This document shows positions 7,839 through 57,673 of a DNA stretch of 64,000 nt, one piece after another. The notes beneath the pieces are model-generated. The model saw only the letters and a list, made by a program, of their open reading frames with translations. It searched no databases and was not told the origin of the DNA. The stretch's first letter is position 1; each line of letters opens with the position of its first letter. The position numbers and the translations under genes were made by a program. The stretch is taken from NCBI GenBank assembly GCA_964587855.1, contig CAZPLT010000001.1, positions 83,523-147,522 of the forward strand. Direction: 5' to 3'. The DNA comes from an uncultured Muribaculaceae bacterium. GTDB taxonomy: Bacteria; Pseudomonadota; Alphaproteobacteria; Rs-D84.

Positions 7839-7917
7839 TCAATATATGGTTCAATGCTTGTTTTACGTCTTCCAAAATACTATAATTCATATCCGTGACC
7901 AAAAAAAGGAAGTAGTT

Positions 7918-10900
7918 ATGACCAAGATGATAGTTGATGGTAATTGGGCCGCAGCAGATGTGGCATATCGATGTAGTGAATTTTCAGCAATATATCCAAT
8001 AACACCCAGCAGCACCATGGGTGAGTTGGCAGATGAATGGGCGTATCAGCATAAAAAGAATATTTGGGGCGCAGTGCCCGGAATAATTGAAATGCAGTCT
8101 GAGGGTGGCGCAGCCGGCGCAGTTCATGGCGCGTTGCAGATGGGCGCATTGGCGACGACTTTTACCGCGTCCCAGGGTTTGCTGTTGATGATTCCAAATA
8201 TGTATAAAATTGCAGGGGAACAAACACCATTTGTTATGCATGTTGCGGCGCGTGCTTTGGCGACACATGCTTTGTCTATATTTGGTGATCATTCTGACGT
8301 TATGTCAGTTCGTGGAACTGGTTTTGCATTATTATCTTCGCATAATGTTCAGCAAGCCCATGATATGGCTGCAATAGCACATAGCGCAACACTTCGCGCG
8401 CGCGTTCCGTTTTTACACTTTTTTGATGGTTTTCGTACCAGCCATGAAGAATCCAGAATTGAATATATTCCAGATGAAGTTTTACAGGAATTAATTCCAA
8501 CAGATTTAATGTTAGATGCGCGCAATCGCGGTATGACTCCGGATGCGCCAACGATTCGCGGAACCGCGCAAAACCCAGATGTATTTTTCCAAGGGCGCGA
8601 GGCCGCAAACAAATTCTATGATGCGGTTCCAGAAATTGTTCAAAATGTTATGAATAAATTTGGAAAATTGACGGGACGTAAATATGGCTTGGTTGAATAT
8701 ACTGGTGACAAAAAAGCCGAAAATGTAATTGTTGTAATGGGCAGCGCGGCAGAAACAATAACTGAAACTTTGCCACATTTGCCAAAGGGCGTTGGAATGA
8801 TAGCGGTGCATTTGTATCGTCCATTTCCGACAGATGCATTTTTAAAAGTTTTGCCAGACAGTGTTAAAAATATTGCCGTATTGGACAGGACAAAAGAGCC
8901 CGGTTCAATCGGTGAACCATTGTACCAAGATGTTGTAACCGTATTGCAAAATCGTGGTATAAAAATCTTTGGTGGGCGTTATGGTTTGGGTTCCAAAGAG
9001 TTCAAACCCCGTGATGTCCAGGCTGTGGTTGAAAATTTAATCAATGGAAAACTTCATCATAATTTTACTGTTGGTATTACAGATGATGTTACGAAATTGT
9101 CGCTGAAAACGGATCCAAAGTTTGCAAATGATGTTGCTGGAAAATCAGCAATACTTTACGGAATCGGATCTGACGGAACAGTTGGCGCGGTTAAGAATAT
9201 AGTTAAAATAGTTGGGGATAATTCTGATTTGTATCCGCAATCTTATGCAGTTTATGATTCCAAAAAGTCAGGGGGACTTACTGCTTCGCATTTGCGATTC
9301 GCACCAAAGCCAATACAATCACAATACTTGGTGGAATATGCGGATTTTATTTCTGTTTCTAATTTTACCATTGCACAAAGATTTGATGTTTTTAGTGGGT
9401 TGAAACCTGGTGGAATTGTGATGATAAACACAGGGCATAATCCAGACGAAGCTTTTGCAATGTTGCCACGTGATGTCCAAGAACATTTGATTAAACAAAA
9501 AGCCAAAGTATATTTCTTGGATGCGAATCGCGCAGCGCGTGAATTGGGACTAGGGAACAGAATAAATACTTTTATAATGTTGAACTTTTTCAATTTAACC
9601 AAAGTAATAAATCCATCTATCGCGGCAAAATCTGCAAAAGATGCGATTGAAAAAACTTATCATAAAAAAGGTGAGGATGTTGTTGCTGCAAACTGGGCAG
9701 CGGTTGATAAAGCGGCAGAGTTTTTGCATGAATATACTTTGCCAGCACAGCCATCAAAATCAGCACCGGATTGGATCCCTGCGATGACGGCTAATGCGCC
9801 AGCATGTATTATGAATACTTTGGGTGAAATGGCCGCAATGTGTGGTGATGATTTACCTGTATCTGCAATGGCAAATTCAGGGGAATTCCCAGTTGGAACT
9901 TCGAAATATGAAAAACGTGGAATCAGTGAAAATGTTGTTGTGTGTGATTTAAGTAAATGTATTCAATGTGGAAAATGTTCAATGTTGTGTCCGCATGCTG
10001 CGATTCGTATGAATGCGGGTAAAAATATTGGTGGTGTTCCAATGAAGACATCTGAACTGGGTGAAGATATGGAATTTTTACTGACAATTTCACCAGCAGA
10101 TTGCACAGGATGCCAGGTTTGTGTAAAAAATTGTCCGGTTGGCGCATTAAGTGTTGTTCCAATTGAACAAGCACAAAAATTGGGCGCCCAAGAAGCATTT
10201 GATAAAGCAGCAAAATTGCCTCCAGTGCCAAAGGATAAATTAAATACTAATTTACCAAAGCATATAGAACTGTCTGAACATATGTTTGAATTCCCAGGCG
10301 CATGTGCGGGTTGTGGTGAAACACCTTATATAAAATTAGTAACACAATTATTTGGTGATCATATGGTTGTTGCAAATGCAACTGGGTGTTCATCAATTTA
10401 TGGTGCGAATTTGCCAACTACTCCGTATACATCAGATTCGAATGGTCGCGGACCTGCATGGTCTAATTCATTATTCGAAGATAATGCAGAATATGGATTG
10501 GGAATGCGTATGGCATTAAATCAACGTCGCGAAATGTTAAAGGGTTTATTATTCAAAGTCTTTGATGATAAAGATGATAAGATTATTGAATCTTTATTTG
10601 ATGAAAAAGATATCGTAAAGCAGCGCGAAAATGTTGAATTGGTTCGTAAAAAAGCCAAAGGCGATAAACAAATCGAATCGCTGCTGGATGCGCTTGTTGA
10701 TAAATCTGTATGGATAATCGGTGGTGACGGATGGGCTTATGACATTGGATACGGTGGTTTGGACCATGTCCTGCATAGCGGTCAAAATGTTAATGTCTTG
10801 GTTATGGATACCGAGGGTTATTCAAATACTGGTGGTCAACAATCCAAAGCAACACCTTTTGGTGCTTCGATGAAATTTGCCGTCAGTGGTAAAGAAATAG

Positions 10901-11382
10901 CCAAGAAAGATTTGGGATTGATTGCGATGATGTCGGGTGCTTATGTTGCTCAAATCGCAATGGGTGCAGATCAAATGCAGGCTATTCGTGCAATCAAAGA
11001 AGCCGAAGCATTCAATGGACCATCAATAATTTTGGCATACAGTCCATGTATTGCGCATGGTTATAACTTATCAAATGGACCAGCACATCAAAAGATGTTG
11101 GTTGATTCTGGTGTATGGCCATTGTATCGTTTTAATCCAGCTTTGATAGAGCAGGGTAAAAATCCACTGATAATGGATTCTGATGCCAGTACAGCAGCAA
11201 GCTTGGAAGATTTCTTGAAAACCGAGGGCCGTTTTAATGCTGCTCGTGCAATGAATCCGAAAAAGTTTGCAGGGTTGGTAGAATGCGCAATAACTGACAA
11301 TGAATATAGATGTGAATTAAAAAAACACATTGCTTCATTTGCTCTTTTGCGCAATAGTCCAAAAAAGAATGGGGAAGGTTAA
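7918..11382 (+). CDS. nifJ: Pyruvate:ferredoxin/flavodoxin oxidoreductase (PFOR, NifJ/YdbK-type, single polypeptide)
   Basis: 1150+ aa. N-terminal MTKMIVDGNWAAADVAYRCSEFSAIYPITPSS (PFOR domain I). Two 4Fe-4S CxxCxxCxxxCP motifs (CIQCGKCSMLCP, CTGCQVCVKNCP). TPP-binding GGDGW C-terminal domain. Confidence 0.9.
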   Translation: MTKMIVDGNWAAADVAYRCSEFSAIYPITPSSTMGELADEWAYQHKKNIWGAVPGIIEMQSEGGAAGAVHGALQMGALATTFTASQGLLLMIPNMYKIAGEQTPFVMHVAARALATHALSIFGDHSDVMSVRGTGFALLSSHNVQQAHDMAAIAHSATLRARVPFLHFFDGFRTSHEESRIEYIPDEVLQELIPTDLMLDARNRGMTPDAPTIRGTAQNPDVFFQGREAANKFYDAVPEIVQNVMNKFGKLTGRKYGLVEYTGDKKAENVIVVMGSAAETITETLPHLPKGVGMIAVHLYRPFPTDAFLKVLPDSVKNIAVLDRTKEPGSIGEPLYQDVVTVLQNRGIKIFGGRYGLGSKEFKPRDVQAVVENLINGKLHHNFTVGITDDVTKLSLKTDPKFANDVAGKSAILYGIGSDGTVGAVKNIVKIVGDNSDLYPQSYAVYDSKKSGGLTASHLRFAPKPIQSQYLVEYADFISVSNFTIAQRFDVFSGLKPGGIVMINTGHNPDEAFAMLPRDVQEHLIKQKAKVYFLDANRAARELGLGNRINTFIMLNFFNLTKVINPSIAAKSAKDAIEKTYHKKGEDVVAANWAAVDKAAEFLHEYTLPAQPSKSAPDWIPAMTANAPACIMNTLGEMAAMCGDDLPVSAMANSGEFPVGTSKYEKRGISENVVVCDLSKCIQCGKCSMLCPHAAIRMNAGKNIGGVPMKTSELGEDMEFLLTISPADCTGCQVCVKNCPVGALSVVPIEQAQKLGAQEAFDKAAKLPPVPKDKLNTNLPKHIELSEHMFEFPGACAGCGETPYIKLVTQLFGDHMVVANATGCSSIYGANLPTTPYTSDSNGRGPAWSNSLFEDNAEYGLGMRMALNQRREMLKGLLFKVFDDKDDKIIESLFDEKDIVKQRENVELVRKKAKGDKQIESLLDALVDKSVWIIGGDGWAYDIGYGGLDHVLHSGQNVNVLVMDTEGYSNTGGQQSKATPFGASMKFAVSGKEIAKKDLGLIAMMSGAYVAQIAMGADQMQAIRAIKEAEAFNGPSIILAYSPCIAHGYNLSNGPAHQKMLVDSGVWPLYRFNPALIEQGKNPLIMDSDASTAASLEDFLKTEGRFNAARAMNPKKFAGLVECAITDNEYRCELKKHIASFALLRNSPKKNGEG

Positions 11383-37446: not shown

Positions 37447-38549
37447 AATCCCTAAAAATTTTTATAATTGCTGGTGAAGTTTCTGGCGACGTTCTGGGCG
37501 AAAAAATAATGCGCGCCCTGCCACGTGATACCAAATTTATGGGTATAGGCGGACAGCATATGCAAGCGGCGGGGCTGCGCCCTATTTTTCCAATTTCTGA
37601 TTTAGCAGTAATGGGTGTGTTTGAAGTTTTAGCAAATGTTAAAACATTAACCCGCAGAATAAATGAAACCGCAGATGCGATAATCAAATTCGGGCCGGAC
37701 ATAGTTCTGACCATAGATAGTCCCAGTTTTGCAAAACGCGTTATTAAAAAAGTTCGTGGTCGTATAAAGACTAAATTTTATCATGTTGTTGCTCCCCAGG
37801 TTTGGGCATGGGGTGAAAAGCGCGCGAAAAAATTCGCCAAAATTTTTGATAAGCTTTACGCATTTTTTGATTTTGAAAAACCTTACTTTGAAAAATATGG
37901 TTTGCCAGTTGTCGCGGTCGGACATCCAATTGCAGACGGATTGAAACCGGTGGCAAAGAGCAAAAAGAAAAAAGATAAAAACATTGCATTGATTCCAGGC
38001 AGCCGTATGTCCGAAGTAAAAAAGTTGCTGCCATTAATGCGCACCGCGGCGGAAAAAATGTGCCACCAGAAACCTGATGTTTGGTATAATTTTTATATTC
38101 CAGTGGTTGAAACCACTTTTGAATATATTAAAAAAGAAACCGCGGATTGGTGCACCAAACCAGAATTAGTTCCAGCATCCCAACGTTATGAATTATACAA
38201 AAAAACCGATATTGCGATTGCCGCCAGTGGCACAATTTCAGCCGAGCTGGCAATAATGCATATCCCCGCAATTGTTGTTTATAAAATGAACCCTTTGACC
38301 GAAATGTTGGCACACATATTATTGAAAATTAAATGGGCGTCATTAGTAAACATTTTGATGAATAAAACAATTTTTCCAGAATTATTGGGACGAAATGCAA
38401 CAGCGGAAAATATAATCCGCGAAATTCATAAACTGGAAAATCCAGCGGTGCGTGAAAAAATGATTGCTGATTTAAGCAAAGCAGACAAGATGTGGCGTCG
38501 CGCCCGCCCCGCTGCCGAACTCATCGCTAAAGATATTGTTGGAAAATAA
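37443..38549 (+). CDS. lpxB: Lipid-A-disaccharide synthase
   Basis: KIFIIAGEVSGDVLG N-terminus, GT19 family length. 4-bp overlap with lpxA. Confidence 0.9.
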   Translation: MKSLKIFIIAGEVSGDVLGEKIMRALPRDTKFMGIGGQHMQAAGLRPIFPISDLAVMGVFEVLANVKTLTRRINETADAIIKFGPDIVLTIDSPSFAKRVIKKVRGRIKTKFYHVVAPQVWAWGEKRAKKFAKIFDKLYAFFDFEKPYFEKYGLPVVAVGHPIADGLKPVAKSKKKKDKNIALIPGSRMSEVKKLLPLMRTAAEKMCHQKPDVWYNFYIPVVETTFEYIKKETADWCTKPELVPASQRYELYKKTDIAIAASGTISAELAIMHIPAIVVYKMNPLTEMLAHILLKIKWASLVNILMNKTIFPELLGRNATAENIIREIHKLENPAVREKMIADLSKADKMWRRARPAAELIAKDIVGK

Positions 38550-38552
38550 ATA

Positions 38553-38586
38553 AAAAAATCGCGCCGACGCGCGATTTTTTTATTTA
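38553..38586 (+). terminator. Rho-independent terminator after lpxB
   Basis: atcgcgc-cgac-gcgcgat plus T-run. Same stem sequence as the tsf terminator. Confidence 0.75.
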
Positions 38587-38594
38587 TATATTTA

Positions 38595-40529
38595 TTATTT
38601 TAATGGGGGGTAGCATTCGCCGTCCGCTATCGCGCAGCATGCATAGCCATTCATACTTTCTACCCATCTAAAACTTTCCCCTGAGCAACAACCATTTTCA
38701 TCTGGGGCGTCGCCACTGGTGCATAATTGCGAAGAAACTGTATTATGTTCTTCATTGTAATTTGATGGACCATGTACTGGATATTCTGGTTTCAGTGGTA
38801 ATGTTATTGTTGATTTTTCATCTGGAACGGATATAACCTCTGGCTCTGGTTCTTGTACGGGTTCAGGCTCGGCAATTGGTGCGGGCATTGGTTCTGGTTC
38901 CGCCACAGGTTCTGGCATTGCGACTGGCGCGGGCATTGGTTCTGGTTCAATGACTGGCGCTGGTTGTGGTTCCGGTTCTGTGATAACTGGGACTGGCTGT
39001 GGTTGTGGTTTTACAATCGGTGCTGGCTGAGGCATGGGTTGTGGTGCCGGTTCCGCAACTGGTTCTGGCTGGGGCATTATAAATGCAGATTCATTTGTTT
39101 GTGGTGCTGGTGCGGTTTCTGTCGGAACATTTTCAGAAACGACACTGGGTTGCGCCAGATTTGGTGTTCCAGATTTATCCATTCTGGATTGATAAATAGA
39201 CAAAGTTAAAATGCAAAGTCCGATTAAAATAACCAACATTATATAATAAACAAAGCTGGGCTTTTTTGCCCCAACAGGTGGGTGCAAAACTGTAACATCA
39301 GGATTTGTTATTGGGGATGCGGGTCTTTCCATTTCAACCGGCGGCACCACTGGCGGAACGGTTGGTTCTGATAACTTTGCAATAGGCTGTTGTTGTGGTA
39401 CAGCAATAGTTTGCTGAGGCATATTCACAGGTATAGTTGTTGGTTCAGTCGTATTGATAACCGGTTCAACAACAGTTGGTTCAATCGGCTGTGGTGCAGT
39501 GAAAGTTATCGAATCGGGGGTTGTTGTGTTGTCTTCCGAATTTGTTTGCTTGATATTAAATTCTGTTGGATTAAATGAAGGTGTTTCAAATCCAATCGGT
39601 TGGAAAGCAATTTTATCATCTATTATTTCAGGATCTTTGTTAAACAAAGGTTTTGGTTCATCTGCCATTCTTGGCTCCTGTGATTTTTCTATATTTATTA
39701 AATCTTTGACGTTATTTGTCGCCTTTAATACATTGCGTGCTGCGGTTGAATCATTTCTTGCATCTTCCAGTCTTTTTTTTGCGCGACGCAATCTGGCCTT
39801 TGCCCGTTTTTCTTTTTCGTTTACTTTATCCATTTGGGATTGGACTTTTAATATTTTTGCTGCGGATTCTTTTGTTGGTTTTTTCCCAACTTCACTGCGT
39901 ATTTTGTTCAACTTTGTTTTCAAAGATTTGATATTAGAATGTAATTTAATCAGGGATTCTTCGGTTTTTTTAATGGTTTCGGTTGAAATCTCAATTTCAC
40001 GCATAGCAGCATTTAATCTGGCCTGGGCCAATTCTTGACCGACAGTTATTCTAAACTTATTTAAATTATCCAATGCATTATCTATGGTTCCACCTGTTTT
40101 ATAATCAGCAATAAGTTGCCCATAAACAGGCAATCCTGTATAATTTATATCCAGCTTTTGATATTTATTATTTTTCTTTGGACGGACGTCTTCCAAATCC
40201 ATTTTATAATCATTGCTTAAAATATCGTCCCATTTGCGCCCTTCCCGATCCGCAATTATCAATAATATATTCGGAGTGTTTTCGGTACGTGTTTCATCCA
40301 ACACAAATATAAGTTTGTGATCAGCATCATAAAAAGCAGAAAATTTATTTCCAGAGATGTTAAAAGATTCCGTCATAATTTTATCAGTATATTTAGAATT
40401 ATTGAAAGAAAATACAGGCATGTCAGAATCTGGCATGGTTGCGATATGTGTGCTAGAAAAATTTTCTCTCTCGTTATTTGCCATTTTTAAGACTTCTTTG
40501 GTGGTGGCATTTGGTATGCTGCGCGGCAA
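38595..40529 (-). CDS. Bitopic protein with PEPxPAP-type proline repeats and Cys-rich C-terminal domain
   Basis: ~430-aa N-terminal region with coiled coil (KLNKIRSEV...RAKARLRRAKKRLEDAR). Single TM (YYIMLVILIGLCILTLSIY). >15 Pro-rich degenerate repeats. C-terminal 10-Cys domain. Alternative start 40484. Confidence 0.55.
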   Translation of the reverse strand: MPRSIPNATTKEVLKMANNERENFSSTHIATMPDSDMPVFSFNNSKYTDKIMTESFNISGNKFSAFYDADHKLIFVLDETRTENTPNILLIIADREGRKWDDILSNDYKMDLEDVRPKKNNKYQKLDINYTGLPVYGQLIADYKTGGTIDNALDNLNKFRITVGQELAQARLNAAMREIEISTETIKKTEESLIKLHSNIKSLKTKLNKIRSEVGKKPTKESAAKILKVQSQMDKVNEKEKRAKARLRRAKKRLEDARNDSTAARNVLKATNNVKDLINIEKSQEPRMADEPKPLFNKDPEIIDDKIAFQPIGFETPSFNPTEFNIKQTNSEDNTTTPDSITFTAPQPIEPTVVEPVINTTEPTTIPVNMPQQTIAVPQQQPIAKLSEPTVPPVVPPVEMERPASPITNPDVTVLHPPVGAKKPSFVYYIMLVILIGLCILTLSIYQSRMDKSGTPNLAQPSVVSENVPTETAPAPQTNESAFIMPQPEPVAEPAPQPMPQPAPIVKPQPQPVPVITEPEPQPAPVIEPEPMPAPVAMPEPVAEPEPMPAPIAEPEPVQEPEPEVISVPDEKSTITLPLKPEYPVHGPSNYNEEHNTVSSQLCTSGDAPDENGCCSGESFRWVESMNGYACCAIADGECYPPLK

Positions 40530-41008
40530 TGTTCATAACAATATGGTTTGCCGGGAAAAACCTTGGCTCCACAAAAATGGAAATTTTCTGAATCTGGATT
40601 GCCAATTGGCCAACGACATTGGTCTGGTCTTAACATTGCCAATTCAACAGCGTGCTGAATCATATGTTGATGCGCGACCAGGTTTTTTTTGCTGGTTACA
40701 GTAGTTTTGTTTGCTGGGGCCTTTGGGGATGGCGCTGTGACTTTTTTAGTTTTTGCGGTATTAGCCGGAACTTTTTTAACATTATCTTTTTTTGCTGGTT
40801 TAACCTTTATAACAATTTCTTTCTTTGCAGGTGCTTTTTTATTAGCATTAGCAACAGATTTGTTGTTCCAGCCCAGGCGATTCAGTTTGCCTACAACGGC
40901 ATTTTTGGACATGCCGATTTTTTTGCCGATTTCAGAAGTGCTCATGCCCTTTTCTAGCAAGGCTTTCATTTTGTTTAAGGTTGCGGGGGTCCATCCGATA
41001 GATGCCAT
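40487..41008 (-). CDS. gcrA: GcrA cell-cycle regulator
   Basis: N-terminal W-T-x-x-x-x-x-x-L-x-x-L-W-x-x-G-x-S-x-x-x-I-x-x-x-x-G (MASIGWTPATLNKMKALLEKGMSTSEIGKKIG...NAVVGKLNRLGW). C-terminal CRWPIGNP...FHFCGAKVFPGKPYCYEH. Confidence 0.85.
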   Translation of the reverse strand: MASIGWTPATLNKMKALLEKGMSTSEIGKKIGMSKNAVVGKLNRLGWNNKSVANANKKAPAKKEIVIKVKPAKKDNVKKVPANTAKTKKVTAPSPKAPANKTTVTSKKNLVAHQHMIQHAVELAMLRPDQCRWPIGNPDSENFHFCGAKVFPGKPYCYEHCRAAYQMPPPKKS

Positions 41009-41089
41009 GATATTGCTCTCTGTTTATTATTTTCTTTTATTATTTATCAAATTGTAGCATAATTAAAAAAAGAAAAACAAGGGGAAAAA

Positions 41090-41533
41090 ATGTTAGCGAT
41101 TTTTATAATTTTATTACTAGCAGCAGTGTTTTGCGCGGCTATGATGTGCAAAAATGATTGGAAAAACAGAATAATACCAGATGTTTATCTTTTCCCTTTT
41201 ATGTTAATTGGGTTATTAGTGGTCACATTTTTCCCATGGTTCTTTGATTTTGGGGAATCTGTGATTGCCGGCACGATTGGTTATGGGCTGGGAATTATTA
41301 TGGGATTGCTGTTCAAAAAAAAGTCCCCCGAAGCTATTGGAATGGGCGATGTAAAATTGATGGCAGCTGGTGGTATATGGTTGGGCGCCAGCGGTTTGGC
41401 AGTTTCTTTGATAATATCTTGTGTTTTGGGCGGAGTATGGGGAATGCTTAAAAAACAAAAATTTATTCCATTTGCCCCTTTCTTTTTTATCGGCGCAATT
41501 TGTTCTTTAATAATAATGGGAATAATGATATAA
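41090..41533 (+). CDS. A24-family prepilin peptidase, CpaA/TadV-like (short form)
   Basis: Two catalytic-Asp contexts (IPDVY..., GMGDVKL). 5 TM. 147 aa. Confidence 0.55.
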   Translation: MLAIFIILLLAAVFCAAMMCKNDWKNRIIPDVYLFPFMLIGLLVVTFFPWFFDFGESVIAGTIGYGLGIIMGLLFKKKSPEAIGMGDVKLMAAGGIWLGASGLAVSLIISCVLGGVWGMLKKQKFIPFAPFFFIGAICSLIIMGIMI

Positions 41534-41546
41534 TTGACCAGAGAGA

Positions 41547-42641
41547 ATGAAAAAAGTATACGCTTTTTCAATGGCTGTTGCATGCTGGATAATCCCCGCT
41601 GGGATCGCATGCGCTACAGATTTCCCATTGTCCCAATACGGTCAGATTCAAAATGTCCAAAGCTATTCTTCTAACCCTTTTTATAATCCAGACAGCCCTT
41701 ATAATCAGCGCATGCCGACAGCAATTTATGCCCAGGGAACAGAATTAAATGCTGGGGAATGTCGCAATGTTGTTGATGTAATAGTCGGTGGATTATGCGC
41801 ACAACGTAATAATTGCGAAGGATTAAGTTTATCTGATATTCGTCCATCGGTGGTAATCCAATTATCAAATTTGACTGGACATAACTATGTTACGGCTTGT
41901 AATGGTTATATTCAACCATCATTTGAAGATTATATGAAAAATAACAGTGCGGTAAAAGTTACTGGCTTTCCATCGGCTTTTCCAACAGTTAATTCAACAC
42001 AAACAGAAAATTCATCCAGTGAATTGATTTTAAGTAATCCTTATGAATTGAAAAAAGCAGATTGGGAGAACAATAAAACTGCACGTCAAAATGAACTGCG
42101 TGCTTTACAAAGACAAAATGGTTCTGATGATGTAGCGTTGGCAGCAACAAAATTTCCAACAACTTATGCTGATTTATCTTTTACAGAAAGAATGGAAAAT
42201 GACCAGGCTGGATATGAACCATGGAAAGATGCCCAGGCTTATAAACCAATTAAAATAGAAGACGATGAAACAAGATATGAAAGAGAAAACGAACTCGCCC
42301 AACAACAATTAGAATTAGCAAAAAAACAAGATGAATTGTTACAGGTTACAAGTCAATGTACATGGTGTTATAACAATCAAACAAAATGTTATAATGATTT
42401 AGCCAAACAAGTTAATGATTTAAACAAGAGCAGAAAAGATAATGCTTGTTCAGAAAAGGTCTCTGGAACAGACACTTCATATATCGCACAAGATGTAGTC
42501 TCAGATGCTAAGTGCGGCTGGATTCTAAAAGATAATGTCAGAACGGTAACTTTAACCGACGCGGATTGTGGCACACCGTCTAATGGAAATAATACCGGAA
42601 ATGGTTCAAGTGATAATCCTATAGTTATTGATCTAGGGTAA
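41547..42641 (+). CDS. Secreted protein (364 aa), unknown
   Basis: Signal peptide. Cys pairs. Asn/Gln-rich. No domain recognised. Confidence 0.5.
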   Translation: MKKVYAFSMAVACWIIPAGIACATDFPLSQYGQIQNVQSYSSNPFYNPDSPYNQRMPTAIYAQGTELNAGECRNVVDVIVGGLCAQRNNCEGLSLSDIRPSVVIQLSNLTGHNYVTACNGYIQPSFEDYMKNNSAVKVTGFPSAFPTVNSTQTENSSSELILSNPYELKKADWENNKTARQNELRALQRQNGSDDVALAATKFPTTYADLSFTERMENDQAGYEPWKDAQAYKPIKIEDDETRYERENELAQQQLELAKKQDELLQVTSQCTWCYNNQTKCYNDLAKQVNDLNKSRKDNACSEKVSGTDTSYIAQDVVSDAKCGWILKDNVRTVTLTDADCGTPSNGNNTGNGSSDNPIVIDLG

Positions 42642-42643
42642 AA

Positions 42644-43741
42644 ATGAAAAAATATTTGAATATTTTTATTATATTCATTTTTATAGGCTGTTTTTATAGC
42701 GCTAGAAGTTATGGAGAAAATAATCCAACAAGTGCGTTTGAAGAATGTATGCAAAGGATACTTGCGGCTGATGATAATAAAAATGGCAAATCTGATTTTG
42801 CAGAAGAACTTGATAAACTGTTGGGAAATCCGAAAGATATAGAAAGTTTTACATCAGCTGCTAATTCAAAAGCCAATATAATAGCAGTTGCGATTACTGG
42901 TGCAGCATTTCATAAAGAAGATGGATTTTGTAATGATTTAATAATGAAAATTGCAAATGAGACAAAAGAATCATTTACCTTTGGATTAAAAAAGTTTGAT
43001 AAAACAGTACAATTTAAAATTAGTAAAAACAAGTTATTAGAACAATATAAAGTTGCGCTTGGAATACTTGTTGCGAATACTTCATCCTGGCAATATCCAA
43101 AAGTTATAGACAGAGATTATATTAGCGAAAAAACATGGGATAATGATTGCTCAGATTATTCATCTAAAAATCCATTTGATTCTGTTTATGATAGCGACCC
43201 TGTAAATATAGCTATGCAAAAAATAAAAGGTGACAGCGAAGAATATTTTATTGATGAACCAGAACATATGCACGCTTTCCCAGGATTGATAATAGAGGAT
43301 GTTACGTATCAAGATTTAGCTAATTTAGTTATTATGGATAATATTCCGATGGCAAAAGAGGAGATAACTAAATTTGCAACAAATGTAGCATCTTTATCTG
43401 GTGAATGCAAAGGGCATTATGCATATCTTGTATCGTATGTTGTCCCTGAAAAAATTAATACAGGGGTTGGACCTGGGCAAAGATGGGGAACAAATTTTGC
43501 CGTAGCCGGTATAACTGTAGCTGCTATTGGTGGTGCTACGGCTACTTGGGCTTCCGGTTCTCTTTTAGCGGGTATATTTGCTACAGCTGAAGTGTCTTCG
43601 GTAGTTCCAGTTGTTGGTTGGATAGTAGCAGCAGCATTAGTAGTAGTTGGTGGGGTTGTTGCCCTTGTTTCTTCTACGTCTACAGAAACTTTGGCAGATT
43701 TGCCACAAATGATGGTTGTAGATGGCCCATATCCATTATAA
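42644..43741 (+). CDS. Secreted protein with C-terminal Gly/Ala-rich hydrophobic segment (365 aa), unknown
   Basis: Signal peptide. C-terminal AGITVAAIGGATATWASGSLLAGIFA...VVGGVVALV (glycine-zipper-like). Confidence 0.5.
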   Translation: MKKYLNIFIIFIFIGCFYSARSYGENNPTSAFEECMQRILAADDNKNGKSDFAEELDKLLGNPKDIESFTSAANSKANIIAVAITGAAFHKEDGFCNDLIMKIANETKESFTFGLKKFDKTVQFKISKNKLLEQYKVALGILVANTSSWQYPKVIDRDYISEKTWDNDCSDYSSKNPFDSVYDSDPVNIAMQKIKGDSEEYFIDEPEHMHAFPGLIIEDVTYQDLANLVIMDNIPMAKEEITKFATNVASLSGECKGHYAYLVSYVVPEKINTGVGPGQRWGTNFAVAGITVAAIGGATATWASGSLLAGIFATAEVSSVVPVVGWIVAAALVVVGGVVALVSSTSTETLADLPQMMVVDGPYPL

Positions 43742-43789: not shown

Positions 43790-43863
43790 TGGTGCGGGCG
43801 GCGGGAATCGAACCCGCGTCTCGAGCTTGGAAGGCTTGCATTCTACCATTGGACTACGCCCGC
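43790..43863 (-). tRNA. tRNA-Gly (anticodon TCC)
   Basis: Reverse complement GCGGGCGTAGTCCAATGGTAGAATGCAAGCCTTCCAAGCTCGAGACGCGGGTTCGATTCCCGCCGCCCGCACCA. Anticodon loop CTTCCAA. Confidence 0.85.
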
Positions 43864-43876
43864 GATGCAAATTTTT

Positions 43877-43962
43877 TGGTGGGAGCGGTTGGAGTCGAAC
43901 CAACTCAAGCAAAGCTAACAGATTTACAGTCTGCCCCGGCTCTCCGACTCCGGCGCGCGCCC
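43877..43962 (-). tRNA. tRNA-Tyr (anticodon GTA), long variable arm
   Basis: Reverse complement GGGCGCGCGCCGGAGTCGGAGAGCCGGGGCAGACTGTAAATCTGTTAGCTTTGCTTGAGTTGGTTCGACTCCAACCGCTCCCACCA. Anticodon loop CTGTAAA. T-arm GTTGG-TTCGACT-CCAAC. C at position 8 and a C4.U69 acceptor mismatch are noted. Confidence 0.7.
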
Positions 43963-44017
43963 TAAAAATAAAAATAAAAAGACGAAAAAACGCTGTTGCG
44001 CTCTTTCGTCCAGATTT

Positions 44018-44093
44018 TGGCAGCCCCAACCGGAGTCGAACCGGTGTTCTCGCCTTGAAAGGGCGGTGTCCTGGGCCTCTAGACGATGGGGCC
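44018..44093 (-). tRNA. tRNA-Glu (anticodon TTC)
   Basis: Reverse complement GGCCCCATCGTCTAGAGGCCCAGGACACCGCCCTTTCAAGGCGAGAACACCGGTTCGACTCCGGTTGGGGCTGCCA. Very close to canonical bacterial tRNA-Glu. Confidence 0.85.
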
Positions 44094-44100
44094 AAAAATA

Positions 44101-44177
44101 TGGCGGGATTGACGGGGATCGAACCCGCGACCTTCTGCGTGACAGGCAGACGCTCTAACCAGCTGAGCTACAACCCC
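44101..44177 (-). tRNA. tRNA-Asp (anticodon GTC)
   Basis: Reverse complement GGGGTTGTAGCTCAGCTGGTTAGAGCGTCTGCCTGTCACGCAGAAGGTCGCGGGTTCGATCCCCGTCAATCCCGCCA. Confidence 0.9.
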
Positions 44178-44327
44178 AATTATCATCTTATGCTAATCCG
44201 TGGGATTAAAGATGAAGGCTCGCCAAGTTTATACTTTTCAATAATAAAAATCAAGGCTTTTTTTCATCTGGGTAAGAGCTGCTTGCCTCCCTGCTCTTTT
44301 TCGTGTTATAATAATTATTCAGAGAGA

Positions 44328-46169
44328 ATGAAAAAACAAATCGGATTTTTTGCAATTATTTTTTGCGCTGTTTTTTTAGTGTCTGGTTTTATTTATGCTG
44401 ATGATTTACAAACCCCGGATGTTCAGGGTATTGTTGATAGTATATCAACACCTAAAACTTCGGAAAATACTATTCAGGCAACATGTGCTCAACAAGTTTT
44501 TGCCCAGGCATTAATTGCAGATGCTGCATCGGTTAATGAAGACTCGCCCGAGGTCGATATCCAGGCATGGATATATAAAAATTTCCAAAGTCCCAATACA
44601 ATACAAAAAGTTTTGAATTGCACCGAAATAAGTCAATTGGCGGATGATGATACAATGACTGTTCCACCTGTAGAATATAGATTCCCAGCGGGGCGTAAAA
44701 TAGTTGTAAATTATGAAACCCAGCCGAAAATTTTAAAACAACGTTTATTAATTGCTAATAAGCGTGCAATCCCTTGTACTACCGATGATTGTATATCACC
44801 AAAAATTGGTGCGGCAAATGACCCAAATCTTTGGACCAATACCGAGCCAGCATGGTATGGAATTTTGGTTGTTCAAGCTGGCGCATTGGATCCTTATATT
44901 GGTGAAGAAAAAAATAATGTAATTGCATTAAAATATATAGAAGAAAACGTCGATATTTTTTATCCGCATAATTATAATAAAACTTTAATACATACTAATT
45001 CTGGTCCCAGATGTACTTCGCGCAGTGCTTTTGCAAATGACAGCGATATTGTAAATCTAGCAACAACTAAATCTGTCGGAATTGAATCTTATGGGGATGA
45101 AGATGGTGATGGGCAAAAAGATACAAATGATTACTATGTTGCAGGTGATGTTAACTTACAATGGGTTGCCTGGTCCGAGATTGCATTGGATGTTGTAATA
45201 ACCGTTGCAACAGTTGGCGGTGGAACAATATTAATTGGTGCAACCAAGGGTTTGCGAGCAGCCAAAGCAGCAAAAAATTTAGCTAAGAGCATAAAAGTTT
45301 TAAAAGAAGCAGATGCAGTTAAAGATTATATAAGTCTTGTAAATAAAGCGTCAAAAGCCGCAGAAGAATTAAAAGCTATAGACAAAGTAACAGATGCAGC
45401 TAAATGGGCCAAGAAATCAGATGAAATAAAAGATCTAGAAAAAACGATAAAAGAAACAGAAAAAGTAGGTGATGTAAAAAAATATAAAGAAGCAGTTTCG
45501 ACTTTCGGAAAGATACAAGATTTACGACGAGGAATGAAGGCTTGGAAAATACCACAACGTGGAAATGTTATTGCTCGTAGTTGGCGTGTAGCCAAGAATT
45601 TTACTAAATTATTAAGAAGTGGAAAAACAATAAGCAAGGCGGAACGAGTCGCTCGTGCTGGTATGAAATCCGGAAAACTTCGTAATTGGTTGTTTGTTAG
45701 CACCATGAAAAATGTGGGTCGTTTGGCAAGAATGGAACGACAAGCCGGAATACTTTATGGCGCTATGACACTTATTGAAGGGGCGTATGATTGGACCGAA
45801 ACTTCAACAGGGGAATTTTCTAGCAATATAGAATTAAAGCCATTTTGCTTATTATCAGCCGATGATTTGCCTGGTGGACAAGACAATATAGTTAATTATG
45901 GTATGTGGTTGATGTGGGCGGGGGATTCTTTGTCTGCCGAAGATGATGATGCGGCATTTTTACAAGCAATGGATTTTGCAAATAAATTCCACCAAGATAT
46001 GCAAGAAACTCAATATGAAGAAACCGAAAAAGGCCGCAGTAATAATGACATGTGTGATGTTGATATATTCGTTGTGCGACCAATCATCAAAAATCCAGAT
46101 TCAGATAATCCAGAACTTTATTATCTTATTATGAATGATGTTCCATGGAGTATTCGTACAGCTGAGTAA
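44328..46169 (+). CDS. Large secreted protein (613 aa), unknown; Lys-rich central coiled region
   Basis: The ORF-track 5' extension (43827-44327) runs antisense through the tRNA array and is spurious. Real start is MKKQIGFFAIIFCAVFLVSG after a GAGAGA RBS. Confidence 0.55.
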   Translation: MKKQIGFFAIIFCAVFLVSGFIYADDLQTPDVQGIVDSISTPKTSENTIQATCAQQVFAQALIADAASVNEDSPEVDIQAWIYKNFQSPNTIQKVLNCTEISQLADDDTMTVPPVEYRFPAGRKIVVNYETQPKILKQRLLIANKRAIPCTTDDCISPKIGAANDPNLWTNTEPAWYGILVVQAGALDPYIGEEKNNVIALKYIEENVDIFYPHNYNKTLIHTNSGPRCTSRSAFANDSDIVNLATTKSVGIESYGDEDGDGQKDTNDYYVAGDVNLQWVAWSEIALDVVITVATVGGGTILIGATKGLRAAKAAKNLAKSIKVLKEADAVKDYISLVNKASKAAEELKAIDKVTDAAKWAKKSDEIKDLEKTIKETEKVGDVKKYKEAVSTFGKIQDLRRGMKAWKIPQRGNVIARSWRVAKNFTKLLRSGKTISKAERVARAGMKSGKLRNWLFVSTMKNVGRLARMERQAGILYGAMTLIEGAYDWTETSTGEFSSNIELKPFCLLSADDLPGGQDNIVNYGMWLMWAGDSLSAEDDDAAFLQAMDFANKFHQDMQETQYEETEKGRSNNDMCDVDIFVVRPIIKNPDSDNPELYYLIMNDVPWSIRTAE

Positions 46170-47033: not shown

Positions 47034-47762
47034 CTATTGTACACTGGCATTTGATGGGAAGAAAGTCAGCTGAATAGTCTTCCATTTTTCATACTCATTT
47101 TCAGGAAGCATACTGAAAGGCTGACAGTTTGAAACGGCCGAGCGAATGGTTTCAAAAATGTATGCCATGGCCGGGTCGTTAGCGGCGGCGGATTCTTGTT
47201 CAAACCACAGACTTTGCACGAAGCCGCGTTGATTCATAGACAGATGTGCAACAGCGCGAATATTTTCAATCCCCGGATAGGTTTTATTAAATACCCAACA
47301 ACGTGTCATTGCAAAACGCAGTGCATCAACCACAGAAACTGTCATGGTGCGGTTCAAACTGGTTGTTTCACGATTAACACGAACAATAGTGGTTGCTTTT
47401 TGCGCATTTGGGGTTGGCTTGGTATCGGTTTTTTTAACCGGATCCGGCAAAGCAGTCATTTTTTCTATTTTTTTATCATCGTCCCCCAGTGGTTCAACTG
47501 GTTCAGGCTTTTTTTCTTGTTTTTTCTGTTGTTGTTCATCTTTTGGCAATTCGGGGGCTTCGGTATTAAATACAAGTGTTTCGTCGCCTTTTATTTCAAC
47601 ACGGGATAAATCTATATCATAAATTTGAACATGGTCAGACATAACAATCTGGTCCATAGGGTTCAATATTGCAAACGAAGTAATCATTATGGCAAGAATG
47701 CTCAAATGCCCCGCAACGGATGCCAATAAGTTTTCTGAAAAAAATGATTTTTTATTTTTCAA
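47034..47762 (-). CDS. tolA: TolA-like protein (N-terminal TM, charged linker, TolA/TonB-type C-terminal domain)
   Basis: Position downstream of tolQ-tolR. Single TM. Lys/Glu/Pro-rich linker (KDEQQQKKQEKKPEPVEP). Confidence 0.6.
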   Translation of the reverse strand: MKNKKSFFSENLLASVAGHLSILAIMITSFAILNPMDQIVMSDHVQIYDIDLSRVEIKGDETLVFNTEAPELPKDEQQQKKQEKKPEPVEPLGDDDKKIEKMTALPDPVKKTDTKPTPNAQKATTIVRVNRETTSLNRTMTVSVVDALRFAMTRCWVFNKTYPGIENIRAVAHLSMNQRGFVQSLWFEQESAAANDPAMAYIFETIRSAVSNCQPFSMLPENEYEKWKTIQLTFFPSNASVQ

Positions 47763-48163
47763 TTTTCAATTTTTGTTCGCAGACCAACTTTTTGAAATCC
47801 AGCATCTTTTAGTGCGCCCATCATTGACATAACCGCGCCATAGTTAGCATTTTTATCACCATTAATCATAATGGTCAGTTTTGGGTTTTCCCCACGCATA
47901 GCGATTAAACGATTAACAATTTCTTTTTTTGAATGTTCTTCTTTGCCGACAAAGTATCTGCCACTGGTATCAACACCAATTTGTATTGCATGATCATCAC
48001 CGGACATTGCACTGTGCCCTGCTTTGGGCAAATCAAGATCAATTCCGCTGGTCAACATTGGTGCAGTAACGACAAACACCGCCAGCAAAACAGTCATAAC
48101 GTCAATCATAGGCGTCATAACAATCAAAGAATTTGAATCAACTGATTTTCTTCTGCGTGGCAT
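47759..48163 (-). CDS. tolR: TolR/ExbD family biopolymer transport protein
   Basis: ExbD/TolR signature (INVTPMIDVMTVLLAVF, 134 aa). Confidence 0.85.
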   Translation of the reverse strand: MPRRRKSVDSNSLIVMTPMIDVMTVLLAVFVVTAPMLTSGIDLDLPKAGHSAMSGDDHAIQIGVDTSGRYFVGKEEHSKKEIVNRLIAMRGENPKLTIMINGDKNANYGAVMSMMGALKDAGFQKVGLRTKIEN

Positions 48164-48164
48164 T

Positions 48165-48656
48165 TTATTTTCTCTTCAATTCTTTGATTTGGGAATCTAT
48201 TTTGTTATAAAACTCGTCAGATTTTTTGCTGAAGAATTGATAAAAAACTGCGGCTGGGATTGCGACAAACAGACCCAATGCGGTTTCGCCCAACGCAACC
48301 GCCAGTCCAGGTGCAATAACCGCCAGACTGGTAGAATTATTTGCCCCAATTGCGCTGAACAAATGCATAATCCCCCAAATTGTTCCAAACAATCCAACAA
48401 ATGGCGCAACAGCCGAAGCCATTGATAAAAACCATAAATTTTTATCATAAGGTTCAATAATTTTATCAGTGAATGTTTCCAGATTATCTTCACGGGAAAC
48501 CTTGATTTGGCGACCTTTGGTTTCTTTCCATAAACGGAGTTTACCAATAATAATAGTCCAAGATATAACGCTGGCTGCAACCAACATAATGGATGTTAAA
48601 AAAGCCACCGGGTCGGTCGGTGAAAAAATTGATAGAAATGAAAAGTTATTTTGCAT
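48165..48656 (-). CDS. tolQ: TolQ/ExbB/MotA-family proton channel (short, 163 aa)
   Basis: MotA_ExbB C-terminal region (GLFGTIWGIMHLF...APGLAVALGETALGLFVAIPAAVFYQ). Confidence 0.8.
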   Translation of the reverse strand: MQNNFSFLSIFSPTDPVAFLTSIMLVAASVISWTIIIGKLRLWKETKGRQIKVSREDNLETFTDKIIEPYDKNLWFLSMASAVAPFVGLFGTIWGIMHLFSAIGANNSTSLAVIAPGLAVALGETALGLFVAIPAAVFYQFFSKKSDEFYNKIDSQIKELKRK

Positions 48657-48669
48657 TTTGTTTTTCCTT

Positions 48670-49044
48670 TTATTTTATTTTCTTTATATATTCTTCGGGT
48701 ATTCGTTTAGGTTTCATGTCGGCACCGATATAGGCAGCGGTGCCATGCAGTATAGCATAAATTTCGCCGTCTTTCACGAACTTTTGTTCAACTTTTATTG
48801 ATGCTGCGCCAATTTCAGTCGCATGAGTTTCGACAACAAAATTATCGCCCAATTTCAGTGGTTTTTTATATTTCATATTTAATTCGCGAATTACAAATCC
48901 GATATCTCCATTTGTTGGCGCGGCGTCCATCATCCACTTCATCCGTGCGCGTTCTGCGATTTCAATATATCGTGCATGATACACAATGCCGCCAGCATCA
49001 GTATCAGCATAAGCAATTGAAAAATTAAATTTATGTAGATTCAT
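48670..49044 (-). CDS. ybgC: Tol-Pal-associated acyl-CoA thioesterase (4HBT hotdog)
   Basis: YADTDAGGIVYHARYIEIAERAR hotdog motif. Precedes tolQ. Confidence 0.8.
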   Translation of the reverse strand: MNLHKFNFSIAYADTDAGGIVYHARYIEIAERARMKWMMDAAPTNGDIGFVIRELNMKYKKPLKLGDNFVVETHATEIGAASIKVEQKFVKDGEIYAILHGTAAYIGADMKPKRIPEEYIKKIK

Positions 49045-56590: not shown

Positions 56591-57673
56591 ATGAAAAAAA
56601 TTGGAATAATGACAACCGGTGGGGATTGCAGTGGGTTAAATGCCGCTATTATGCGACTGGTTGCTGGTGGAATTGGTCGTGGATACCAAATGTTTGGGAT
56701 TTTGGACGGAACGGATGGTTTGATTGAAAATCCACCCGCTATAATTAAATTTGATGATAATTTACCACCTCCAGAATACATCAGAATGTCGGGCAGTTTT
56801 TTAAAAAATGGTAATGCAAAGGCTGAAAACTTTAATACCGCGGCACGTGCAGGTAAGTTAAAAGATTTTCAAAGCAAATTAAAGAAATCTATAGAAAAGC
56901 TGGATATGGATGCTTTGATTTTGATTGGTGGAAATGGTAGTTTAAGTTTAGCGCATAATAATCGTCATGTTTATTCTAATGTTCAGATAGTTTGTATTCC
57001 AAAAACAATAGATATGGATATACCATTGACTGAAAGAACAATCGGTTTTGATACTGCGGTTCAGGGATTAACTGCTTTTTGCGACCAATTAATGCAAACT
57101 GCACGCTCACATCACAGATGGTTCGTTGTGCAATCAATGGGTCGCGATACGGGACATCTGGCTTTGCACGCTGGGGTTGCGGTTGGTGCTTCGGCGATTT
57201 TAATTCCAGAAATTAAATTTTCAATGAATACTTTAACTAAACATCTCAAAAATTCCCCACGGGATTATGGTGTAATTGTGGTTGCCGAAGGCATTAAAAT
57301 GCGTGGGCATTCTGGCGAAGCAGCTGATATGGTTGCACGGGAATTAAAAAAGAATGGTTTTGCGGTTCGTACCGCTTTTCCAGAACATATTCAGCGTGTT
57401 GGTGATACAACTGCAGCAGACAGAATTTTAGCATCACGGTTTGCTGATGCAGCATTAAGTGCTATAGAAAATAATGAAACCTATGTAATGACTGCATTGG
57501 TGGATGGTGTTGCTAAAAGCGTTCCATTAACTGATATGTTTAATTCAGGCGAAGTATCGTCAGATCCAACAATTCCAAATTTAAATGTTTCAAATTCATT
57601 TGTTCCGTTAAGCAGTCCCCTGCTGACTGCGGCAATTTCCATGGGCGCGTATGTTGGTGAAATTAAAAAATAA
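56591..57673 (+). CDS. pfk: 6-phosphofructokinase (PFK-A family; ATP vs PPi dependence undetermined)
   Basis: MKKIGIMTTGGDCSGLNAAI, IGGNGS, PKTIDMDI, and MGRDTGHLAL motifs. Confidence 0.85.
   Translation: MKKIGIMTTGGDCSGLNAAIMRLVAGGIGRGYQMFGILDGTDGLIENPPAIIKFDDNLPPPEYIRMSGSFLKNGNAKAENFNTAARAGKLKDFQSKLKKSIEKLDMDALILIGGNGSLSLAHNNRHVYSNVQIVCIPKTIDMDIPLTERTIGFDTAVQGLTAFCDQLMQTARSHHRWFVVQSMGRDTGHLALHAGVAVGASAILIPEIKFSMNTLTKHLKNSPRDYGVIVVAEGIKMRGHSGEAADMVARELKKNGFAVRTAFPEHIQRVGDTTAADRILASRFADAALSAIENNETYVMTALVDGVAKSVPLTDMFNSGEVSSDPTIPNLNVSNSFVPLSSPLLTAAISMGAYVGEIKK

Follow-up and report, generated by a model that had tools for sequence, protein, structure and literature searches.

We analysed a stretch of 64,000 nucleotides (nt; hereafter, the window) from an uncultured alphaproteobacterium (GenBank assembly GCA_964587855.1, contig CAZPLT010000001.1, positions 83,523 to 147,522), focusing on a gene for a putative single-pass membrane protein and on its direct neighbor, gcrA. 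GcrA is one master regulator of the alphaproteobacterial cell cycle. Both genes lie on the minus strand, as do all features of the window described below unless stated otherwise: gcrA, encoding 173 amino acids (aa), occupies 40487..41008, and the membrane-protein gene follows at 38595..40484, ending with a stop codon at 38595-38597. The open reading frame (ORF) of 644 aa at 38595-40529 that an earlier note on this DNA had reported does exist, if counted from the TTG start given in the ORF list. However, because the N-termini of the homologues all read M-x-x-E-R-E-N, which corresponds to an ATG at 40484 in the window, the true start is probably this ATG and the protein one of 629 aa rather than 644; residues are numbered on the 629-aa protein throughout. 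Starting from the TTG at 40529, the protein would be 15 residues longer and its gene would share 43 nt with gcrA. With the ATG start, the junction reads ...AAG TCT TAA aa ATG GCA AAT AAC GAG, leaving a gap of 2 nt and no overlap. The gene had been described earlier as lying upstream of gcrA and as overlapping or abutting it; the order was the reverse, with gcrA 5′ of the gene, and the two genes abut, the overlap arising only with the TTG start. At the other end, a terminator-like hairpin at 38546..38587 (readable on both strands; a 19-pair stem flanked by A and T runs) lies between the gene and a convergent lpxB and, judging from its sequence, probably ends the gcrA transcript. The ORF is a real, strongly conserved gene, which we refer to as the gcrA-linked gene.

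The assignment of the neighboring gene to gcrA was confirmed by a match to Pfam PF07750 (E-value 1.5e-32; 113.6 bits vs. a cut-off of 26.9) over residues 6-167, comprising the DNA-binding and sigma-interacting regions. The NCBIfam model sig70cofacGcrA ("cell cycle sigma 70 cofactor GcrA") matched with 89.7 bits, which was under its equivalog cut-off of 280. We then fetched 80 species loci containing the gcrA-linked gene and located gcrA in them by tblastn. One locus, with just 68 nt of upstream sequence, was not judgeable; in all 79 testable species-level loci, gcrA was found directly 5′ of the gcrA-linked gene on the same strand, so that the adjacency on which the earlier note had staked its proposal is conserved. 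The gap between the gcrA stop codon and the ATG had a median of 18 nt and ranged from 2 to 54 nt in 75 of 78 loci; in the other three, it came out negative because an earlier in-frame ATG had been picked. No terminator was found between the two genes, which, together with the gene order and the tiny gap, indicated that the gcrA-linked gene shares the gcrA transcript. The genes downstream of it varied by subclade, and included lpxB (closest relatives only), ACPS, or a gene for a giant protein of 4073 aa. Given that these downstream neighbors vary while the adjacency to gcrA is constant, the pair itself is the conserved unit. As judged from gene order and spacing, the two genes form a predicted two-gene operon that is kept throughout the order Rs-D84 within a small conserved block, and translation of the second gene is possibly coupled to that of gcrA.

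The region upstream of gcrA (41009..41089), which is common to gcrA and a divergent gene for an A24 prepilin peptidase, contains a -35-like TTGTTT and an extended -10 TGCTACAAT. We compared the intergenic regions between the A24 gene and gcrA in 84 sequences (83 loci and the window; lengths of 65-226 nt). This region was highly conserved, with the clade consensus TTTTTCCCCCTTGCCTTTCGATTCGnAACTATGCTACAAT. GANTC was present in 75 of the 84 sequences, and its position in the consensus was the spacer between the -35 and the extended -10. Both promoter elements are retained in the window and its nearest relatives (L001 and L006-L010), from which GANTC has been lost. A full CtrA box (TTAA-N7-TTAA), a TTAACCAT half site, or a DnaA box (with at most one mismatch) was found upstream of gcrA in none of the loci. 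GcrA works at CcrM-methylated GANTC promoters, and the gcrA operon may be methylation- or auto-regulated in most of the clade, although we regard this as a lead and not as a result. In the window as a whole, the number of GANTC sites was at chance (159 vs. 168.8 ± 11), and this frequency consequently gave no hint either way on CcrM methylation.

A protein search for the product of the gcrA-linked gene retrieved more than 150 full-length relatives of 570-900 aa, which were unnamed or annotated as "hypothetical" and came from uncultured Alphaproteobacteria of animal and termite guts. Scanning one genome per GTDB species, we found relatives in 280 genomes, many of which are named Candidatus Enterousia and some of which carry labels that are clearly wrong. 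Enterousia belongs to the order Rs-D84, all members of which have genomes of approximately 0.7-1 Mb and presumably live as obligate symbionts (PMC12306168). The lineage is the gut order Rs-D84 and not Rickettsiales or Holosporales, across which the earlier note had suggested checking the adjacency. The gene is kept even on a complete chromosome of 716,531 bp (L059). Since hundreds of species have kept the gene on the gcrA transcript while their genomes shrank to 0.7-1 Mb, it is very likely important.

To describe the protein, we combined the family alignment with an AlphaFold2 (AF2) model built with 112 sequences. The predicted local distance difference test score (pLDDT) exceeded 90 at residues 40-260, except for one loop near residue 110, and at residues 590-629. 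The conserved N-terminal peptide M-x-x-ERE-N precedes an orphan alpha/beta head (residues 36-134; 40083..40379), which in the model consists of a beta-meander followed by helices, and the invariant polar residues of which are located within RKWDD and RPKKxNKYQKLDIEY. The head is followed by a predicted antiparallel helical hairpin (39681..40082) composed of helices 135-197 and 204-268, which is rigid, basic, and of fixed length. Its core (residues 135-250) comprised exactly 116 aa in 112 of 112 sequences, had a median net charge of +10 (range, +4 to +22; +18 over residues 141-260 in the window), and carried an invariant Arg ladder (R227, R231, and R238). The hairpin tip VGKKPTKESAAKILK (39846..39890; consensus IG[KR]EPTKxSAAKIL) is located at the turn in the model and is the best conserved stretch of the protein. 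Beyond the hairpin, an acidic linear motif RMADEPKPLFNKDPEIIDDKIAFQPIGF (39588..39671; consensus MAEEVKPLFxKDPEIxDExIAFKPIEF) stands out from a variable region, with eight positions invariant in 23 diverse members; its pLDDT of approximately 60-68 in the model would be compatible with a partner-binding peptide. The remainder of the cytoplasmic part is a disordered, Pro-rich, acidic linker (39267..39587; pLDDT <50; family median net charge of -21.5) of variable length, which contains the small motif RPxSPITG (39303-39326) at its end, just before the transmembrane (TM) helix. The mean identity across the family was 74% in the hairpin tip, 62% in the acidic motif, 56% in the head and also in the TM helix, and 27-29% in the tethers on both sides of the membrane (29% in the cytoplasmic linker). 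A long cytoplasmic N-terminal part with coiled coil and Pro-rich stretches, as had been proposed from the sequence, was thereby borne out.

The head was used as a profile against 1.84 billion representative proteins, yielding 232 matches at E ≤ 1e-3, of which 222 remained at E ≤ 1e-10 and 165 at E ≤ 1e-30. The head was located at the N-terminus in each of the 150 matches listed; the full-length ones comprised approximately 540-890 aa, and the shorter entries were probably fragments. This score distribution and the uniform architecture indicated that the family is sharply bounded, without detectable remote relatives or other architectures. The gcrA-linked protein is probably essential and clade-specific.

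The protein has a single TM helix, FVYYIMLVILIGLCILTLSIYQ (residues 411-432; 39189..39254), in agreement with the earlier note. This was the sole region with Kyte-Doolittle windows above 1.6; it coincided with a helix at residues 411-436 in the AF2 model, and followed the pattern YY...L..LI.LS..TLWLYQ in the family. The Kyte-Doolittle analysis detected no hydrophobic segment at the N-terminus. Cys residues were distributed unevenly, with a median of zero and a maximum of two in the cytoplasmic part of family members and a median of six in their tails; the window protein has none in the cytoplasmic part, one in the TM helix, and six in a C-terminal knob. The part after the TM helix (tether plus tail, 153-318 aa in the family) contained approximately 3.6% Lys and Arg and had a median net charge of -36. 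The lack of an N-terminal hydrophobic segment, the split of the Cys residues, the charge asymmetry, and paralogues that place the knob outside the cytoplasm (see below) supported a predicted topology with the N-terminus in the cytoplasm and the C-terminus in the periplasm.

The TM helix is followed by an acidic periplasmic tether (38724..39188) with an X-Pro dipeptide core at 38823-39077. In this tract (residues 470-554; 85 residues), 34% of the residues were Pro, with Pro at every second residue, and the autocorrelation of Pro was 18-22 at even lags and 0-4 at odd lags. It contained seven PEP and 12 EP, and Tandem Repeats Finder reported just 1.9 copies of a 30-nt unit; the ">15 PEP(V/M)(A/P)EP repeats" claimed previously were therefore an overstatement of an X-Pro dipeptide tract. 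The periodicity of the DNA, which had been pointed out at the same time, is real: 14 octamers resembling GGTTCTGG (at most one mismatch) were found within 38842-39110, and 67 in the whole window vs. 26 expected by chance. Close relatives differed from each other through insertions and deletions in the X-Pro tract.

The protein ends with a six-Cys knob of 42 aa (38598..38723), which was predicted with a pLDDT of 92-94 and contained a beta-hairpin at residues 603-618 in the model. The C-terminus is Cys-rich as originally described, although the sequence quoted at that time contains six Cys residues and not ten. All six were invariant in an alignment of 26 module sequences, in which the commonest spacing was C-x10-CC-x14-CC-x6-C, followed by [FY]PP. 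Among the 112 family members, 78 ended with the knob, approximately 10 with ...HDGGQYSIGYTETTY, approximately 19 with an acidic ...EEEAAYQAE... tail, and approximately five with other or truncated tails, such that approximately 30% of the family carried other tails instead of the knob. In the second group, comprising approximately 10 of the 112 homologues (P0083, P0086, P0094, P0100, P0104, P0109, P0112, P0119, and others), the knob is replaced by a tail ending with ...HDGGQYS[IV]GYTETTY, the terminal aromatic residue of which recalls an outer-membrane beta-signal or a strand-augmentation peptide. The ...EEEAAYQAE... ends of the approximately 19 other homologues are acidic and Tyr-rich.

Searching with a profile of the knob, we obtained 56 small proteins, a few of which were fragments of long family members. 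Eleven of the small sequences (80-92 aa) were inspected; except for one that was a fragment of a long member, they had a Lys-rich N-terminus and a single TM segment or signal anchor, to which the module was joined directly. The stand-alone module proteins of Rs-D84-like MAGs (P0253, P0258, P0270, P0272, P0274, and others within P0253-P0303) comprised 75-93 aa and carried the module at the extreme C-terminus (C-x10-CC-x13-15-CC-x4-6-C-[FY]PP), where it was 36-49% identical to the knob of the window protein. In the two contexts examined (L086, 5001-5276; L088, 5001-5255), the genes for these proteins shared an operon with genes for an ABC ATPase and a MacB_PCD/FtsX permease, and not with gcrA; the same two operons also encoded a 442-aa lipoprotein-like protein and further uncharacterised proteins. 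The operon may represent a candidate Lol-type lipoprotein system of these bacteria. In the window, there was neither a second copy of the Cys module nor a module operon of the MacB/FtsX type.

The order of Lys-rich N-terminus, TM segment, and module in the stand-alone proteins indicates that the module is extracytoplasmic, and the knob is an autonomous module. The variation of the tails within the family suggests that the periplasmic end is a swappable, partner-binding tip. Moreover, as the module is also anchored at the inner membrane without a spacer, the long spacer is not needed for it, which weakens the idea that the protein spans the whole envelope. Of the earlier placement among envelope-spanning proteins, the layout of cytoplasmic domain, TM helix, Pro-rich spacer, and terminal module thus stood, and the spanning of the envelope became less convincing given the spacer-less modules and the other tails in approximately 30% of the family.

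Next, we compared the protein with known families. Scanning the whole protein against Pfam and NCBIfam yielded just coiled-coil noise (Snapin, KxDL, SMC, and Rad50), far under the cut-offs. The sole match of the full-length profile among PDB sequences was a Pro/Glu-rich stretch of cyclin B1 (E-value 0.18), which we rejected as compositional. Foldseek searches of the full AF2 model against the PDB returned nothing at E ≤ 1e-3; weaker matches to generic helical hairpins (p85 iSH2, AhlC, HP0958, the YscO homologue CT670, and SteB) were likewise rejected. An SMC/Rad50-type arrangement of head and coiled coil was also considered and dismissed, given that neither a Walker A P-loop nor a returning C-terminal half of the head was found. 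The head domain had no Foldseek match in BFVD, and Pfam scans of 33 head domains (E ≤ 1) and 26 Cys modules (E ≤ 10) gave nothing recurrent above chance; the statement that the N-terminal domain lacks homology to a known family thus held in the Pfam, NCBIfam, and BFVD scans of the head. The profile of the Cys module had no match in the PDB. A granulin-like disulfide ladder was considered as a lead for this module, and no match to Pfam Granulin was obtained among the 26 module sequences at E ≤ 10. Head and knob, being without relatives in Pfam, NCBIfam, and PDB, are candidate new folds or modules.

On the other side of the promoter region, a block at 41090-43741 on the plus strand encodes a short A24 (CpaA/TadV-like) prepilin peptidase (41090-41533; Pfam Peptidase_A24, E-value 1.4e-17) and a secreted protein of 364 aa with a signal-like N-terminus (41547-42641; no Pfam match). 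The A24 gene adjoined gcrA in 78 of 80 species loci, and a homologue of the 364-aa protein was present in most of them. A second signal-like protein, of 365 aa and without a Pfam match, follows the 364-aa protein in the block. No pilin or pilus-assembly genes were seen beside the A24 block in the window. Further along, the window contains a cluster of a ybgC-like thioesterase gene, tolQ (Pfam match to MotA_ExbB), and a tolR-like ORF of 134 aa (47759-49044), together with a TolA-like ORF of 242 aa (47034-47762) that has an N-terminal anchor with GHLS, a short K/E/P linker, and no Pfam match. Just upstream of this tol cluster are ruvB and a NUDIX gene.

Several other features of the window and of the related loci were recorded. 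Four tRNA genes (Gly-TCC, Tyr, Glu, and Asp) are located at 43790-44177. A listed ORF of 780 aa with a TTG start (43827-46169, plus strand), without an NCBIfam match, overruns these tRNA genes on the opposite strand, and its real start is probably internal, at the signal-like MKKQIGFFAIIF.... The window also encodes a pyruvate:ferredoxin oxidoreductase (7846-11382, plus strand), which is compatible with an anaerobic fermentative lifestyle, and a phosphofructokinase (56591-57673, plus strand). In some Enterousia-like genomes, the gene following the gcrA-linked gene encodes a giant protein (4073 aa in L004, 8399-14082); the product at the same position in L005 (8399-10429) contains Flg_new repeats and may be an adhesin.

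Based on these data, our preferred reading, to which we assign a probability of roughly 0.45, is that the gcrA-linked protein would be a clade-specific membrane scaffold or adaptor connecting a partner of the GcrA module in the cytoplasm with a periplasmic partner. The head, the hairpin, and the acidic motif would bind the cytoplasmic partner or partners, candidates for which are GcrA, the RNA polymerase or DNA on which GcrA sits, and a protein acting in the cell cycle or in division. On the other side of the membrane, the tethered knob would contact a partner in the periplasm or the outer envelope, which would couple an envelope process with the GcrA phase of the cell cycle. That this role concerns the cell cycle or polarity is what we infer from the operon structure alone. 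Several points weigh against a scaffold tied to GcrA. The adjacency to gcrA could mean just a common timing of expression, and the block also holds the divergent A24 peptidase and secreted proteins, so that the functional link could be there instead of with GcrA. By the missed NCBIfam equivalog cut-off, the neighbor is assignable only as a GcrA-family protein. Approximately 30% of the members lack the knob, and a periplasmic partner of the knob is thus not universal. Moreover, the structural features come from AF2 predictions, and the hairpin could belong to an oligomer.

The position right behind the regulator gene, which is universal in the clade and possibly entails translational coupling, also suits a different and, in our estimate, unlikely reading, namely an anti-GcrA factor. 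The head or hairpin would sequester GcrA at the membrane, and a periplasmic signal received via the tether and knob would release it, e.g., by regulated proteolysis. A single-pass N-in/C-out protein with a folded cytoplasmic domain and a Pro-rich extracytoplasmic part, encoded directly behind a regulator as is the case here, is the classical layout of sigma and anti-sigma factors in gene and protein. Head and hairpin were also conserved about as much as GcrA across the same loci. However, neither Pfam nor NCBIfam gave a match to any anti-sigma domain, the cytoplasmic part of approximately 410 aa is far larger than the known anti-sigma domains of approximately 80-90 aa, and no anti-GcrA factor is known in any organism, which counts against such a function. 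Its most complete form, a transmembrane anti-cofactor that would bind GcrA and keep it at the inner membrane until a cue from the periplasm or envelope, sensed through the tethered Cys knob, sets it free, appeared somewhat more doubtful still. If true, this would constitute trans-envelope signalling into the alphaproteobacterial cell-cycle circuit, which is without precedent in Caulobacter or elsewhere.

The divergent A24 unit raises a further possibility, which we consider decidedly improbable: the protein may be part of a type IV filament (Tad-like) or of another envelope machine of that unit, with gcrA merely located between the two or regulating both. The A24 peptidase and the 364-aa secreted protein adjoin the gcrA pair in nearly all loci, and Caulobacter PodJ, a bitopic scaffold that is GcrA-activated and required for pilus assembly, speaks for such a link. 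Yet the conserved block contained no pilin, ATPase, platform, or secretin gene, the neighbors had no Pfam match, and the gcrA-linked gene is located on the gcrA transcript and not on that of the peptidase. The charge of the hairpin (median of +10 in the core; +18 over residues 141-260 in the window), its Arg ladder, and co-expression with a DNA-binding regulator would fit a nucleoid-membrane tether, in which the basic hairpin binds DNA and attaches parts of the chromosome, or methylated promoters occupied by GcrA, to the inner membrane. We hold this to be quite improbable, as no DNA-binding family or fold was detected and basic coiled coils bind many acidic partners, including the protein's own acidic linker. 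Finally, an energy transducer of the TonB/TolA type, or this lineage's own orthologue of RodZ or PodJ, would account for the Pro-rich periplasmic spacer and the small C-terminal domain, and the bitopic layout resembles that of PodJ and RodZ, but this is barely credible and was largely refuted by a TM helix at residue 411 of 629 instead of at the N-terminus, by the lack of TonB_C, TolA_C, RodZ helix-turn-helix (HTH), RodZ_C, TPR, or peptidoglycan-binding domains, and by the separate ybgC-tolQ-tolR cluster with a TolA-like ORF in the window.

Returning to the scaffold or adaptor linked to GcrA, we found no earlier account of a membrane protein linked to gcrA in our literature searches, and, to our knowledge and as far as these searches showed, no dedicated protein partner encoded together with GcrA has been described. 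If the protein binds GcrA or ties it to the envelope, it would show how a minimal alphaproteobacterium couples the timing of transcription to envelope events. If it does neither, it would still be an envelope protein that defines an abundant lineage of presumed obligate symbionts in the gut.

We also compared the protein with known systems, starting with those that the earlier note had named. Its comparison of the layout with TonB, TolA, RodZ, and PodJ was apt; membership in these families was not borne out, as the note itself had suspected. The likeness to TonB and TolA lies in the Pro-rich, probably extended (X-Pro)n periplasmic spacer (residues 470-554) with a small C-terminal domain. TonB and TolA, however, are anchored at the N-terminus by a segment with an SHLS-type motif and lack a large cytoplasmic domain, and their C-terminal domains are unrelated to that of the gcrA-linked protein. 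In the latter, the only TM helix follows 410 cytoplasmic residues, such that the N-terminal anchor coupling to ExbB/ExbD is lacking. A TonB_C domain was found neither by Pfam and NCBIfam scans nor by comparing the module profile with Pfam and the PDB; TolA was likewise without a match in Pfam and NCBIfam, and the TolA-like ORF is located elsewhere in the window, beside tolQ-tolR. As for RodZ, no HTH or RodZ_C match was obtained in Pfam for the protein or for 33 members of the N-terminal domain at E ≤ 1, and the head was modeled as a beta-meander with helices instead of an HTH. The stand-alone Cys proteins share the C-terminal module with the gcrA-linked protein but lack its tether and cytoplasmic domain.

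Anti-sigma factors of the RseA, RsiW, RskA, and FecR types resemble the gcrA-linked protein in that their genes are located behind that of a transcription factor and in that they are single-pass N-in/C-out proteins, often Pro-rich outside. The gcrA-linked gene is directly downstream of its regulator gene and co-transcribed with it, although this regulator is GcrA and not a sigma factor. No domain of the zf-HC2, RskA, RseA, or FecR classes was found in the cytoplasmic N-terminus by Pfam or NCBIfam. The partner would differ as well, being a sigma-70 cofactor (with binding of GcrA as a candidate interaction), and the cytoplasmic part is an orphan fold of approximately 410 aa with a long hairpin.

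The Pfam and NCBIfam library scans, on which the comparison with PodJ rests, gave no PodJ-named match; there was no TPR/Sel1 or peptidoglycan-binding match in Pfam, and the periplasmic part consists of a disordered tether and the 42-aa Cys knob. No similarity in sequence or fold to PodJ or SpmX was detected, and the head has no lysozyme-like domain. As far as we know, podJ and spmX are not located in the gcrA operon, unlike the gcrA-linked gene. Nevertheless, both are alphaproteobacterial bitopic proteins in which a cytoplasmic N-terminal part, either folded or coiled-coil, is followed by a long linker that is disordered and Pro-rich and by a TM helix, to which PodJ adds a periplasmic C-terminal part, and both are tied to the GcrA/CtrA cell-cycle circuit, podJ being GcrA-activated. 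By analogy and without a relationship in sequence or fold, the bitopic polarity scaffolds PodJ and SpmX would be the nearest functional counterparts of the gcrA-linked protein.

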